63,100 nt of DNA from Thermodesulfobacteriota bacterium (GTDB taxonomy: Bacteria > Desulfobacterota > Desulfobacteria > Desulfobacterales > C00003060). The stretch lies in the NCBI GenBank assembly GCA_034189385.1, contig JAXHVD010000025.1, positions 1 through 63,100 on the forward strand. The letters run 5' to 3'. Numbering within the stretch: the stretch's first letter is position 1; every line of letters begins with the position of its first letter. The position numbers are program-made. Below are positions 21,001 to 27,000 of the stretch, one piece after another.

Positions 21001-24000
21001 TCATCCCTGTCTCTCTAACTGCTTGCTAAGGCCTTTACCTCAACTTTTGAACGTTACCAACTTTTTGGAGTACGTGGCTGTTGTGAGCAGTCCGCCCCGG
21101 CGGATGAAAAAGCGTATCATGGTCGCTTGAAGTTTATGCAAAGCGCTCGCGGGAAAATTAGGAAAGGAGAAAGAGGCTTTTGACAAGACATATGCTCAAG
21201 CTGGCAGGGCTGATCTACCTTTTGACGGCTGTGGGGTGTGTTGCCACCCGCACCCAGGTGCAAATGCCTCCCCAGAGAGCCGAGGACATAGAATTTGAGG
21301 TCATGAAAGAACTGGAACAGTTCAGGGGCAAGGTCAGGAGGGATTTGCGGGTCACTGCCGGCGGCTTTCGTGACAAGACCGGGCAGCACAAGGATTCGGT
21401 GAGAGCCCGCTATTCCAAGGCCGTGACCCAGGGTGGCGAAGAGTTGCTGTACCATATGCTTTACAGGGCCTTGGGACCAAGGGCAGTGGTGGACCGCCAA
21501 GTCGATACGTGGAACCGCTTGACGACGGAGTATCAATACAGCTGGGTGTCGCCGGCGGCAAAAAAACGGCACGCTGGTATCATCAAGCACGGCGGTCCCA
21601 GTGGCTGGCTCGTAGGGGCCAACTACTTGGTCACCGGGGCTGTGGTCTATTTTAATGAAGACCGTTATAGCGGCGGCGGCGGCATCAATGTGGACGGGGC
21701 CGGAGCACACTTTAGAAAGGTCTTTTCCCGCGTAGCCATTGAATTGCGGTTAGTGGATATGAACACGTCGGAAATTTGTTGGAGTGCCATGGTAGAGAGC
21801 TGGGTTTCTGGAACGGAGATCGGCATGGATCTGTTCCGTTTCATCACCGCCTGGGGGGATGAATACCTTGTGAGCGCAGAGGCGGGAAGGGCCCAGTATT
21901 TGCCGACGGACCACGCCCTTCAGGTCTGCATGGCAACTGCAGTGGTTGACATGATCAAGGAGAACCAAGCCCTCTTTATCGCCGGATATGGGGCTGGCAA
22001 AGAAAAGAGAATACCATCGACAAACCAGCCAAAGGAGCTCCACCAAAAGGAAAAGGGCGTGGAGGAAGCACGCCCCCTCCCACCGAACCCCGAAACGGCG
22101 GAGGGGCAGAGACCAAGAGGCAAAAACCAAGAGCCCAGCAACCCACAGAAGGCCGTTGAGGAGAGCGGGGCCAAAGAGCCTGAACAGAGGCAGACCCAGA
22201 AGCCCCATTGGCTCAAGCGGCCTGGGGCAGTGGGGGGGTGGTGAACAAGGGGCCAGCGGACATCAACCCCTCAAAAACCCTTTATCTCCAGCATCTTCTG
22301 CCTATTCTAAGGACACCCTCAAGGCTTTGGGCCATATGCGGTGTCCATGACCAGCCCAAAGCACAACATTTGCTAATTTAACGTAAATTATATTTAATTT
22401 AACATTATTTCGTTGACAAGTTCCCATTTAGTGGTATCTTAACGGTAACTGGGCTCAACCTGTGCACTGGGGTCGTCAGCAAGAGGGCGGCCCTAGGGGC
22501 GCTGTCGCGCCTTTGTGGCGACGGCAAAAAGAGCAGACAAAGGAGATGGATAGAGGCGTGAACTTTCTACTTCGCTGGGAGGATAAGATGAAACAGGTGC
22601 GCGTGATGTGCTTTCTGTTTATGCTGATCTCTGCGTTTTTCTTATTGGTCCCTCATGGCACGTATGCCTTTGATGTGAATACCACCGTGACCAATGAAGG
22701 AAATCTGTCTGTTGACATGAGCGTCAAGGGGGCAAGTGCCCCAGATGGGGCTATTTCCCGGTTGGATCGCTACCGCTTTGAGCTTGACGGCCGCGACGGG
22801 ACAACGGCTCTCACCAACACCTATACACCGGAAACAGGACAAACCGGTGCCAGTATCGGTTATGTGGCAGACCCAGACTATGTATTGATGAGCGGAAAGC
22901 TTTCTGCGGACGAAGAGATAGGGGTCAACCATTCTAATTCAGATGTCTGTTGTGCCGGAGCAGCCAGCAGTTCTTTTGAAGTGGAAGAGCTGGTCTCTGA
23001 TTCTACGGGCAATTTCAATAACAGCAGCTATACCATCGAGGCCTCAGGTCGAACGGCAGATCTGGGAGGGTCATTCGGCGTTGGTGTGGCCGAAAACATG
23101 ACTACCCCGAACCCGGCTGTCTATGAACGGAACATCTACCAACTCAAGGGAGAAGGCGTGTTCAGCATCTCCGGCCAGTATGGTTTTGGCTGCGGAGATG
23201 TCGGTGCTGTTGCGCCCAACCCGTTTGCCGGCGTGGGCAGCACGATCAATGCCCACGGGCAGGGCACGGGGGGCGTGGATAGCGACATCGGCATTCACGG
23301 CCTCTGCTTTGATCAATTCTAGGCAGCTTGAAATTTGGTTGGGGGGTGCAGGGCGGCAGGCCCGTTGATGGACGTGAAGGAACCCAAGGGGCCGGTGCAA
23401 ATACTTATGGGGCTTGCGCTGAGATTCACAAAAGGCGACCCCATTTGTTAGTACTTTAATATTATTAGATAATTTGGGCTATGTCTGAGTCAAGAGCCAA
23501 AGGTTCTCAGAGGAGACTTTCCAGGCGGAGGCCAAAAAAGGGTTGACGGAATTTTTGGCCTATGATACGTGAAAACGCTAACTTACAAGGACGCAGAGGA
23601 GCCTTGTTTTTTGAAAAAAATAGTTGACAAGGTCTCTTCGCCTATGTATTAGCCTTTCTATTCTAAAGAAAATGCTTGACAAGGTTTCGGGGGCTGATTA
23701 TTTATCCCGATCTAACAGGACCTGTCGGGCAAAAAATCGTTGACAAAGCATCTGTGTATATGTATTAGCGCATTGGTCGTGTAGAAAATTTGGGTAGAGA
23801 ATTTGGTTTTAAAATTTTTGACGAAAAGGGGGTGGTGAGCGGAGATCCAGCAAAGAGACCTTAGATTTGGGTCAGGTAAGTGTCTTAGGTAGTATGTAAC
23901 TTTTAACTAAATTTGGGTTAGACTTTTAAAAACGAAAAAGTGGAGGTAAGATCATGCTTTCAAAGATGCGGATTGCGGCTATTGCAGCCATAGTAGTGAT

Positions 24001-27000
24001 GGGTTTTGTCGGATATGCCTTGGCAAGTCCCCCCGTTCCGCCCCCGGTAGAGGGTTTTGGAATCAGCACGAATGTGGACGTGGAGATGTCGTCAGGCGAT
24101 TTTACAGAAGTTGAGTCTTTTCAGTGGACATGGATGAACGATCCCGACGCCGTGGCAGGTAACGATGCTGACAGCAATTTGCACGGGCAAATGGTGCTTG
24201 GTCCCCAGGGCCGTGCGGCTGAGATCCGTTACACCGAGGAGATGCAGACCACAGATACGTCCTTTTTTCAGTTCAACAAGGACTTTGGCGCTGCTTCCGC
24301 TGGTGCTGACACAGCAGGTAACAACCTGAACGTATCAAAGAATTACGGGTATGTGGCTTCAGAAGCCAGCCTGATCGCCAATGCCTCAAACAAGGAAACA
24401 GTGGGCCTGAGCATCGTGGCTAACGGCGACAGCAGGGGCCTGAATGACATGCCGTCTCTGTGCCCCTGGGTGGCTGACTCGACTATCCCTGCAACGAATG
24501 AGTTTATCGCCATGGGAAGCGAGACCTCTACGACGAGCGTGATGGTCTCTGACACCGACACAGAGGCGCGGGCAACTGTAGCGCCTGAGCTGAACCACAG
24601 CATCCTAGCCCAAGGTATCGGTGTGGCCAAGGGCCTCATGAGACTCTCCTTGATGGAAGGTGACGCAGCCTACGATCCAGAAAATGACGAGGATCCACCT
24701 AACCTGATCAGCAAGACCAGGTACAGCGAGACGACCGTTGCTGCCGGTACCATCGACAAGTTCAGCAAGGGTATGAAGTATACTTCAACTCTGCCTGCAT
24801 GGCAGATGCCAGAGCCCTGGTACCAGCTTCAGTAAGAGGCTGACAGGCTCTATTTGATGTCCATCTAAAAGGGGGCGGAAATTATTTCCGCCCCCTTTTT
24901 TTCCCTGTAAGGAACAAATCATGGCAACATTAAAGTCCATTGTTGCGCTTTGTGTGGTGGCCTTTTTGTGTTTTTCCGGCGGCTCTGCCCTTGCACAGGA
25001 TGAGGCCATGTGGCCCAGGCCGGCCCAGGACCTGTGGGAGACAGTGAACGCGGAATTTGTGGGCCCTTTTAATCTGGACCGCGACTATACGTACGAGTAC
25101 ACGGTGCCCGAGTCACTGGTAGAAACGTACACCCATTCCCTTGACGCCTCGGCCACAGACGGAAAGACCAGGATATTTGACGTCATGAGTGTGGTTGGTT
25201 CGTCGCAGGGGAGCCATTTTTGGACCTCTACGAATATGGGACATGACGATTTGGACACGGCAGCCCCCCTTAGTGCCAGCGAAAGGACGGCGGCCGGCAG
25301 ATGCCAGGTCTTTGACTATGACACCAGGGCGGGCTGCGGCGCCATCATGAACTCCGGTTTTGACGCAGACATCATGCGCGGGGCCGTTCATTCCAATACC
25401 TCCATGGAGCCAGGGTCCATGGGCTATCGTTTTTCGGCCAATGGAGAGGCCCAGGTCTCAGCCACGGCTGCCGCGGCCACGGCTTGTGGCGATAATGAAG
25501 GGATCTACAGCGAACAAGACTATCGCCAGAACATAACGGTGGCCGGCGACATCCAAAAGTTTGACTACATGGTGGATTTCTACGGCCAGCCCAACATGTT
25601 GTGCGGCACCTGGGATTAGAAAGGGGTGCGCCAAACCTTCCATTGATGACGGGGCTTCCATGGAGGGTTGTCTCAGTTTTTCGTCTGGTTCCATGGTAGG
25701 CCTTTCTTTATTCCTTCTGTAGGTCCAGAGACTTTCCTCTCGTCTGAGAAACCTGTTCCCTCTGATTTTGGAAAAGGTGCTTAGGCGATCCTTGCCACAG
25801 GGTGACCATCACAGGCTATCACAGTCAACATCCTCATTCCCCTTGTAAGGGGTGTTCTTGTCTACTTTCTGGCCCTTATCCTGTTCAGGCAGCTTTCTGA
25901 ATAGTCCCATGAGGGAAGGGGTTACATCCCCCGATGGGTCAGCGCCTCCATCAGACAGATGTCCTTTCTTGCAGCCCTCCTGTTCATGGTTCATCCATTG
26001 CAGACACAGTCGTTGACGTAGATTATCCAGAGGATGAACAGCTTGGTTCTCTTTTCAAGCCCTTTGGGATCAAATCTGATTTGCCGACGGGCGCGCGGTT
26101 CTCACAGGGCCGTTGCCAAATCAAGCTCTTTATCCCCTTGACAGTCCCATGGAGCTGTTATTATGATACGGTCCTCAAATCAACTACTACCGGTGGCTAT
26201 GATGATGAAAGGGTCGATTCTATCATTTGCATTTTGGGTTCTATGTGCTTTCTTTGTTTGCACTGCTGGAGCCTCCGAATACGTGGAGCCGGACATGGAT
26301 TCAGAGCCCCAGGAGTTGACCGAGGAAGGTGCTGAAGCAGAAGATGACGACGATGAAGAGGCAGAGCCTGAACCAAGGCGAACCAGTCCCGGGCCGGTTG
26401 TTCCCCTTGATGTAAAATATGAGCTGGATAGGCAGCTCGAGGACACAGGGCTGGTGTTTTCGCCCTATGATCCAGGAGAAGTCCGGCCGTCGGACGGCCA
26501 GTACAGCACCTTTCCTCGGCCGGGGACCCCTTTTTTCTTTGTGGAAGATGAAGGAGGGGAAGACAAAGGAGATGACGAAGAAGATGACGGAGAAGATGAC
26601 GGAGAAAAGGAAGATGCACAAAGCGTTGATTAGCCTCATGGGCCTCTTTTTGCTCCTTTTAGGGCTGTGCCTGCCTGTTGGGGCGGAAGACTTAGTCTGG
26701 CAGCCCCGCACGCCTGCCGGCGGCGCTGGTATCGGAGACCCGGACTTCTACTTTCGCATGGCCGATGCCGCCAAGGAAGGCTCCGGAGGTCAGCAGATGA
26801 CCCAGACCTTTGACGGCCGTCTGTTGGGACGTGGTTTTTATGAAGTAAGCGATGATGGACAGGTGATCTATTATGATATGATGGGAAACAAGATGGACGT
26901 GGATCGTGTGGGGGCCATCCAGGATGACCCGGACAACCCCCCAAATGGAGTGGTCTATTATTCTGCGCCCATCCAGGTGATCACATATTAACAGCAAAAC

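Follow-up and report, generated by a model that had tools for sequence, protein, structure and literature searches.

A cluster of six genes on a contig of an uncultured Desulfobacterota bacterium (JAXHVD010000025.1; the window analysed is 63,100 nt in length) probably encodes an outer-membrane machinery for export and anchoring that derives from the type VIII (curli) system and in which curlin has been swapped for archaeal-type sheath (SH) proteins, giving a sheath-type cross-beta polymer. By sequence comparison, the cluster combines a CsgG pore, a protein with a CsgF-type N-terminus and three SH-fold proteins with predicted signal peptides; these genes are linked, and no curlin accompanies them. 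This suggests that some uncultured sulfate-reducing bacteria export sheath protein and build a sheath-type surface polymer. The genome-wide survey's note had proposed a type VIII-like system here, a reading supported by the SH homology, the CsgF-type N-terminus, the CsgG clade, the linkage and the absence of curlin. All six open reading frames (csgG to g01960) are present on the same strand, as that note described (Table 1); the contig is bacterial and belongs to a genome with dsrA.

Table 1. Features of the SH-CsgG gene cluster and its flanks
Feature	Position	Strand	Remarks
tRNA-Gln(CTG)	20554..20627	+	ARAGORN; left edge of cluster
Dispersed hairpin repeat, ~215 nt, MITE-like	20848..21062	.	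upstream of csgG; outside the system
g01955, CsgG of the SH-linked clade	21180..22244	+	
g01956, secreted, divergent SH-fold protein	22588..23322	+	candidate minor subunit; HHalign
Three tandem TTGACA-containing repeats	23615..23769	+	upstream of g01957; repeat family D2
g01957, archaeal-type sheath (SH) homologue	23954..24835	+	candidate major subunit
Perfect 16-bp hairpin, then T run	24867..24899	+	between g01957 and g01958; inverted repeat I5; terminator-like
g01958, divergent SH-fold protein	24921..25619	+	candidate minor subunit; HHalign
g01959, secreted, very acidic protein	about 26199..26633	+	start uncertain, 26163-26205
g01960, CsgF-like protein	26614..26991	+	
Hsp20-domain protein, hydrophobic N-terminus	27083..27655	+	PF00011 E 5e-10; membership in system uncertain

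Sheath homologues

The g01957 product is homologous to the archaeal SH protein, as judged from its sequence and as the note had claimed. It shares 35% identity (E 3e-38) with the ANME-1 protein L005:7944-8804 of G60ANME1, whose length (286 aa) equals that of SH entry _00256 for that genome (PMC11576556, Table S2), and 29% identity (E 2e-24) with a G60ANME1 protein length-matched to entry _00258 of the same table; the match to listed SH proteins is defined by identity and E value together with protein length. SH profile matches include named ANME-1 and Methanoregulaceae proteins, with the named bacterial and the named archaeal SH proteins on opposite sides of a tree branch with a support of 99. 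SH is multi-copy in 18 of the 251 archaeal genomes searched; g01957 has five further full paralogues in its genome (six full copies in total) in addition to shorter ones. A hydrophobic helix at residues 2-18 of g01957, followed by A24-S25, constitutes a predicted signal peptide, and Cys170 is invariant. The AlphaFold model is all-beta (pLDDT 79), with 11 DSSP strands, two of which are 25-27 residues long; fold searches returned no SH chain for superposition. SH proteins are acidic (median net charge -24, n=74), and their N-termini bear no resemblance to the CsgA signal.

Two neighbouring genes appear to be divergent members of the same fold. g01958, previously called sheath-like, matches the SH profile in HHalign at 98.7% (E 2e-16). 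g01956, previously described only as secreted, is SH-like as well (94.9%, E 4e-8), and its paralogue on contig C14 carries Ig domains. In bacteria and archaea alike, an orthologue of g01958 is located directly 3' of an SH gene: in 7/7 archaeal loci, and also in loci L001, L004, L008, L010, L012 and L013.

In the archaeal SH proteins of Methanospirillum, Methanothrix and ANME-1, the core consists of two six-stranded antiparallel sheets, and cross-beta rings form a tube that encloses the cell (PMC10593813, PMC11576556). The proteins described here are homologous to these across the whole core and likewise have a signal peptide and a conserved cysteine in an L-C-P context; both groups show many copies in each genome, variants extended by Ig domains and the g01958 partner gene, which is common to ANME-1 and other archaea. 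In contrast, the host here is a diderm bacterium, the genes are linked to those of an outer-membrane pore, g01957 has no large helical cap and a sheath is only predicted. The locus contradicts the statement of a 2024 survey (PMC11576556) that SH has no homologue in Bacteria; that survey also found no conserved archaeal gene context and no conserved helper genes, for which g01958, common to archaea, is a candidate.

CsgG and CsgF-like components

g01955 is CsgG, in agreement with the note (PF03783, E 7e-20; E. coli CsgG, E 2e-10). It is a predicted lipoprotein (Cys20) that retains the constriction loop and two barrel hairpins, as in the curli systems of E. coli and canonical Desulfobacterota operons, and it ends in a low-complexity tail. 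A [GAS]C pair within the first 50 residues is found in 59/61 members of the SH-linked CsgG clade. This long-stem clade is separate from others (support 99), and in the tree it is placed on the curli side (support 97); the clade search gave 64 matches, with genomic context read for a minority only. The crevice on CsgG that recognises the CsgA N-terminus has been placed at the L236/W237 region (PMC6957492). Its Trp motif is present in 8/8 curli CsgG proteins versus 0/24 of the SH type, and by this sequence criterion the crevice is lost or replaced in the SH-linked clade. The constriction loop has two to four K/R residues in 23/24 SH-type proteins versus one in 8/8 curli CsgG proteins.

The note had called g01960 CsgF-like, which holds for the N-terminus. 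Across the g01960 family, CsgF (PF10614) is the top Pfam match, with 25/68 members at E<=10 (best 0.0011; next family, 4 members), and 0/68 reaching the Pfam cut-off. Profile comparison of the family with CsgF gave an HHalign value of 92.3% (score 28.4, versus 13.8 for the best of 60 column shuffles), with the alignment confined to the first 31 mature columns. While 19/68 members outscore the best background open reading frame, g01960 alone scores poorly against the CsgF N-terminal profile (rank 63 of the 39,536 ORFs in the genome). That the family has the CsgG-binding type of CsgF N-terminus, comprising approximately 30 mature residues, is largely settled at the family level from these alignments. 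The C-terminal part of g01960 is unrelated and widely variable within the family: profile alignment found no match to the CsgB-binding domain of CsgF, which is replaced here.

g01959 has a conserved core of approximately 30 aa (alignment A9) and precedes the csgF-like gene in this locus, L001, L008, L012 and L056, as well as in L013, where it has an overlap of its own. In L008 and G246, the order g01959-csgF-csgG-SH mirrors csgE-csgF-csgG-curlin of relatives. Despite this csgE position, g01959 has no detectable CsgE homology and no Pfam or Atlas match, and CsgE (PF10627) has no matches at E<=1 in the genome. CsgE is also lacking in some of the curli systems covered in PMC3521004. Also curli-like are the predicted subunits, which are acidic, rich in beta structure and exported by Sec, with one major and several minor types; unlike curlin, a beta-solenoid of repeats, the subunit here is a 12-strand-type SH protein.

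Distribution and alternative explanations

The SH-linked CsgG and the SH genes occur together, as the note had reported. Within the genus, the SH profile matches 2/37 genomes, and the CsgG-clade profile matches the same two (E<1e-120; next best, 1e-16). Both are likewise confined to the same 2/401 genomes of a phylum sample (next best for CsgG, 7e-48), with 0/400 among further genomes drawn from the order. A Pfam CsgG match by itself is not discriminating, as 31/37 genus genomes have one. The csgF-like gene, csgG and SH are found together in 5/6 bacterial genomes with SH, which represent three or more lineages, and SH adjoins the pore genes in 5/5 genomes with the pore; only five genomes and two metagenome contigs have the linkage, and they are kin to some degree. 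The sixth genome, G038, has four SH matches and g01958 without the clade CsgG or a CsgF-like gene; its contig ends just 3' of g01958, so the missing pore genes may reflect assembly loss. We did not reproduce the 24 metagenome loci counted previously: a scan with one protein as query gave three, two with the whole cluster in the same gene order and a third whose contig ends ~320 nt 3' of csgG.

Curlin was not found in the genome (90% complete; Curlin_rpt, E. coli control positive), as the note had stated. PF07012 was likewise absent from all six SH-bearing bacterial genomes, all incomplete MAGs, and was present in 4/4 tested Desulfobacterota with canonical CsgG, which served as controls.

In the proposed mechanism, SH subunits would cross the inner membrane by Sec, be kept unfolded, thread the CsgG ring with the g01960 N-terminus seated in its barrel, and polymerise outside via beta-sheet augmentation. 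The bulk subunit would be supplied by g01957 with its paralogues; g01958 and g01956 would be minor ones that nucleate or anchor, and the remodelled C-terminus of g01960 would hold them, as the C-terminal part of CsgF holds CsgB in curli. As a guess, g01959 might act in the CsgE role as a periplasmic escort or gate. The polymer could take the shape of cell-encircling rings, fibres or a matrix. Threading may be difficult for an SH protein of 270 aa that contains cysteines, and PMC6302416 describes some folded passengers that the E. coli system does not secrete.

The ring might instead only anchor the polymer or act as a vent, with SH leaving the cell folded by type II secretion, vesicles or lysis. 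We consider this unlikely: the retained constriction loop has gained basic residues facing an acidic cargo, export and anchoring share one ring in curli as presented in PMC6957492, and CsgG size is reported as unchanged with much longer curlins (PMC3521004), even if the lost CsgA crevice, the absence of CsgE, the large SH protein with its invariant cysteine and the occurrence of SH without a pore in G038 fit such a role. Phage csgG-csgF pairs are also a precedent for re-purposing of the pore: Methylophage Melnitz and pelagimyophages resemble the present locus in having CsgG and a divergent CsgF without csgA/B, as described in PMC9004378. In the same description they encode no cargo and a lysis role is proposed, whereas the genes here sit on a chromosome next to candidate cargo genes, and no SH turned up when viral contigs were scanned with the SH alignment.

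It is more doubtful still that SH-fold proteins polymerise in the periplasm, or are soluble or adhesive, with the pore exporting minor subunits or other cargo only. The paralogues are single, spread over six contigs and distant from the pore genes, and half-size SH genes and the Ig-bearing g01956 paralogue exist; however, curli systems also pair one pore with dispersed subunit genes, up to six csgA/B among the cases in PMC3521004, and SH stands beside the pore genes wherever the pore was found. That the genes are neighbours by chance on a mobile island, or that archaeal DNA was wrongly binned or assembled into a bacterial genome, is very improbable. The tRNA gene, the MITE-like repeat and the patchy distribution would suit it, but the contig encodes acp, fabG, rpmF and glyA (by translation), SH paralogues lie amid bacterial genes on other large contigs, gene order is identical on two independent metagenome contigs, and bacterial SH is well separated from archaeal SH in the tree. 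Other lineages have these parts again, but rearranged, a recurrence that largely refutes this explanation.

The preferred reading, export through a curli-type pore, would make SH a natural non-curlin cargo for type VIII secretion, with a matching change in the recognition site. A wider scenario, which we put forward tentatively, is that scattered uncultured sulfate-reducing Desulfobacterota bear an archaeal-style cross-beta sheath outside the outer membrane, that the SH and g01958 pair was exchanged with ANME-1-like archaea and coupled in bacteria to a curli pore without curlin specificity, and that g01958 is an overlooked conserved sheath nucleator in both domains. As the parts are small and expressible in E. 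coli, sheath nucleation and assembly and CsgG cargo specificity are testable, and the divergent CsgG-CsgF pair may be of interest for work on nanopores and protein materials.

Organisation and flanks of the locus

The note had described the genes as an operon. The cluster stands, but promoter-like sites, the 16-bp hairpin after g01957 and the intergenic distances (about 340, 630 and 580 nt) speak against a single operon, and the six genes are probably a cluster rather than one transcription unit. Two of the three TTGACA repeats have a 17-nt spacer and TG-TATTAG, a consensus match that makes them probable tandem promoters. The hairpin has a predicted energy of -25.4 kcal/mol over a 52-nt stretch; by eye, comparable hairpins lie 3' of 4/5 other g01957 paralogues. 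The ~215-nt repeat has 29 other genomic copies (aligned length 150 nt or more), and its predicted fold is a single long hairpin. The Hsp20-domain gene lies 3' of the cluster here and in L001, L012 and L013, with none beside the cluster in L008, L010 and L056. The tRNA context 5' of csgG is apparently the same, by eye, in L001 and L012.

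Sheath protein homologues and their origin

The genome-wide survey's note described g01957 as a sheath (SH) protein homologue, and this assignment holds. Two G60ANME1 ORFs match it (286 aa at 35%, E 3e-38; 298 aa at 29%, E 2e-24), and the G60ANME1 entries in Table S2 of PMC11576556 are two SH proteins in all, _00256 with 286 aa and _00258 with 298 aa; ORFs and entries were paired through genome, protein length and spacing, not through accession. At E<=0.001, g01957 has 130 relatives; 120 of them were listed, and those with a name come from Thermodesulfobacteriota MAGs. An SH profile search returned 232 representatives; among 20 looked up, two clusters bore organism names (ANME-1 and Methanoregulaceae). 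A GTDB scan yielded 11 SH loci (7 bacterial, 4 archaeal), and 18 of 251 archaeal genomes matched the profile, mostly in multiple copies. The AlphaFold model of g01957 (pLDDT 79) has a signal helix followed by an all-beta region, a prediction that fits, by description rather than superposition, the two six-stranded sheets of SH (PMC10593813). The parts of PMC11576556 consulted state that a structural homologue in Bacteria was not found and that a conserved context of SH genes is absent. A literature search, with most subscription journals and preprint supplements outside its scope, brought up no publication about SH proteins in bacteria or about CsgG together with sheath proteins.

The SH tree, a quick and unrooted one with 94 rows (73 without an organism name), has a branch of support 99 that separates all 16 named or own bacterial rows from all five named archaeal rows, of which the ANME-1 group lies nearest the split. 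The depth of the bacterial side points to an early acquisition that was kept patchily, not to a single recent transfer.

In the window's own genome, six full-length SH copies are spread over six contigs, and shorter copies occur as well. Half-size secreted ORFs (see table) hold the C-terminal strands of SH, the P-x-Q-x-P-E-P-W type tail seen in bacterial SH, or both, and similar short forms occur at locus L091; these are possible caps or terminators, or their tail a possible targeting signal.

The SH profile also matches g01958 (98.7%; shallow alignment, 9 rows), in agreement with its earlier description as divergent sheath-like, and g01956 (94.9%; shallow alignment, 5 rows), previously noted only as secreted; both are predicted to be divergent SH-fold proteins. 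A g01958 orthologue is strong in 7 of 251 archaeal genomes, with weak matches in four more. An SH gene lies directly upstream of the orthologue in all seven strong cases, and directly precedes g01958 in the window and its orthologue at six bacterial loci. In G60ANME1 the orthologue, a candidate minor sheath subunit in archaea, sits between the two listed SH genes; it was not found among the retrieved rows of Table S2 (PMC11576556). A g01956 paralogue fused to Ig-like domains is a bacterial counterpart of the archaeal 'sheath adhesins'.

Locations of the cluster and related features
Feature	Location	Strand	Remark
Six-gene cluster	contig C18 (window)	+	flanked by tRNA-Gln and an hsp20 gene
MITE-like repeat, ~215 nt	window 20848-21062; about 33128-33334		hairpin-forming, paired ends
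Ig-bearing g01956 paralogue	G000:C14:44899-47310	-	g01956-like SH domain
Half-size secreted ORF	G000:C2:104604-105212	-	
Half-size secreted ORF	G000:C2:7237-7710	-	
Half-size secreted ORF	G000:C6:4122-4631	-	
554-aa protein	L089:5845-7509 (G038:C268)		C-terminal SH domain; long acidic N-terminal region without Pfam family
CsgG C-terminal fragment	G040:C228:5-154		contig start; divergent SH-like gene 6 kb further
690-aa membrane protein, C-terminal TPRs	L013:6006-8078		within cluster
690-aa membrane protein, C-terminal TPRs	L008:3578-5650		just upstream of cluster
Archaeal g01958-orthologue loci	L093-L099 (G041, G837, G934, G1013, G961, G859, G1003)		directly follows SH gene, 7/7

Linkage with CsgG and gene order

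Among 37 genus genomes, the two that carry clade CsgG are also the two that carry SH, as previously claimed; among 401 phylum genomes, too, both occur in one and the same pair. Six bacterial genomes with SH were compared (G000, G037, G038, G039, G040 and G246; they are few, incomplete and partly related, and G016 was excluded for possible double counting), and in five of them csgF-like, csgG and SH genes share one contig. In G038 neither pore gene was found, and its SH contig ends after g01958. The lack of curlin claimed for the window's genome was also confirmed, and curlin repeats were seen in none of the six (0/6). In one named MAG, an SH gene (SWQ30_03755) and a CsgF-like gene (SWQ30_03740) lie three genes apart. 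csgG comes first in the window, L001, L012 and L013; the order in L008 and G246 is g01956-g01959-csgF-csgG-SH, and L010 is without g01959. The G040:C228 fragment may continue the cluster on G040:C26.

As a control served the next-best CsgG, present in 14 phylum genomes: csgE- and csgF-like genes were recognised by motif at the 10 loci read, and curlin was present in 4/4 genomes tested. Loci L058-L067 (e.g. G110, G145, G213, G318, G347) are csgE-csgF-csgG operons of the canonical kind, and curlin-like genes accompany most of them; they span several Desulfobacterota families and exceed the two cases given in the consulted part of PMC3521004.

At two loci the cluster is accompanied by a 690-aa membrane protein. 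Pfam gave only TPRs among the rows listed; we take the protein to resemble TMTC-type glycosyltransferases, and it could glycosylate subunits.

The pore, the CsgF-like protein and the proposed path

A quick tree built from 43 proteins, whose long branches leave the deep order unsure, groups the SH-linked CsgG clade (support 99) with curli CsgG (97) and sets other paralogues of the CsgG family apart. The clade retains the lipobox, the constriction loop and the two hairpins. The crevice for CsgA recognition has its Trp in 8/8 curli CsgG and in 0/24 clade members. The constriction loop holds 2-4 basic residues in 23/24 clade proteins versus one in 8/8 curli CsgG, and SH proteins are strongly acidic; we infer that loop and cargo are matched in charge. 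On these sequence features, SH-linked CsgG is predicted to be a specialised curli-type pore.

The proposal that g01960 is CsgF-like stands at the family level. Among 68 members of the family (74 matches) scanned, CsgF was the top Pfam family (25 at E<=10, best 0.0011; next family 4), and no member reached the CsgF cut-off. Compared with a profile built from nine canonical CsgF N-termini, the family's mature N-terminal profile matched at 92.3% and scored 28.4, whereas 60 column shuffles gave no more than 13.8. Against 39,536 background ORFs, 19/68 members outscored the best, the window's own copy ranking only 63rd. The match runs ~30 residues from the signal cleavage site, modelled as coil then helix. 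The N-terminal part of CsgF binds CsgG and its C-terminal part CsgB (PMC6957492, consulted in part); the C-terminal part of g01960 is replaced, as a change of the anchored subunit would lead one to expect.

SH subunits would leave the cytoplasm by Sec, pass unfolded through the CsgG ring and form, outside the cell, a cross-beta polymer anchored via the CsgF-like protein and minor subunits. We regard this whole path as likely. A CsgG/CsgF-like ring that anchors the polymer without exporting SH is distinctly less probable. SH proteins that are periplasmic or soluble seem improbable, and a chance neighbourhood or artefact very improbable. In its way of working the system would resemble type VIII secretion, but it is not a curli system: tests for four curli features (curlin, CsgE, the C-domain of CsgF and the crevice for CsgA) all came out negative.

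Transcription units and host genome

A single operon had been proposed; this reading gave way, and the cluster probably comprises several transcription units. Tandem promoter-like repeats precede g01957 and a perfect hairpin follows it, so that g01957 would, by sequence, be the abundant product. On expression, the RNA runs gave at most a weak hint.

The window, contig C18, belongs to G000, a MAG of 4.13 Mb that is 90% complete and whose dsrA scores above the cut-off. The cluster's left flank encodes acp, fabG, rpmF and glyA (by translation) and so marks the contig as bacterial. Among named relatives that share the gene order, L001 is the closest (CsgG identity 56%); it is assigned to Desulfobacteria, order C00003060, in the portion consulted of the supplement of PMC10491686, which also gives a Syntrophales MAG as the source of L008. 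According to the sections of PMC10553843 consulted, Seep-SRB1c and Seep-SRB1g form one order, Seep-SRB1g genomes fall under C00003060, and Seep-SRB1c has not yet been found with ANME; an ANME partnership is therefore not implied for the window's organism. The MITE-like repeat has 29 further copies in the genome.
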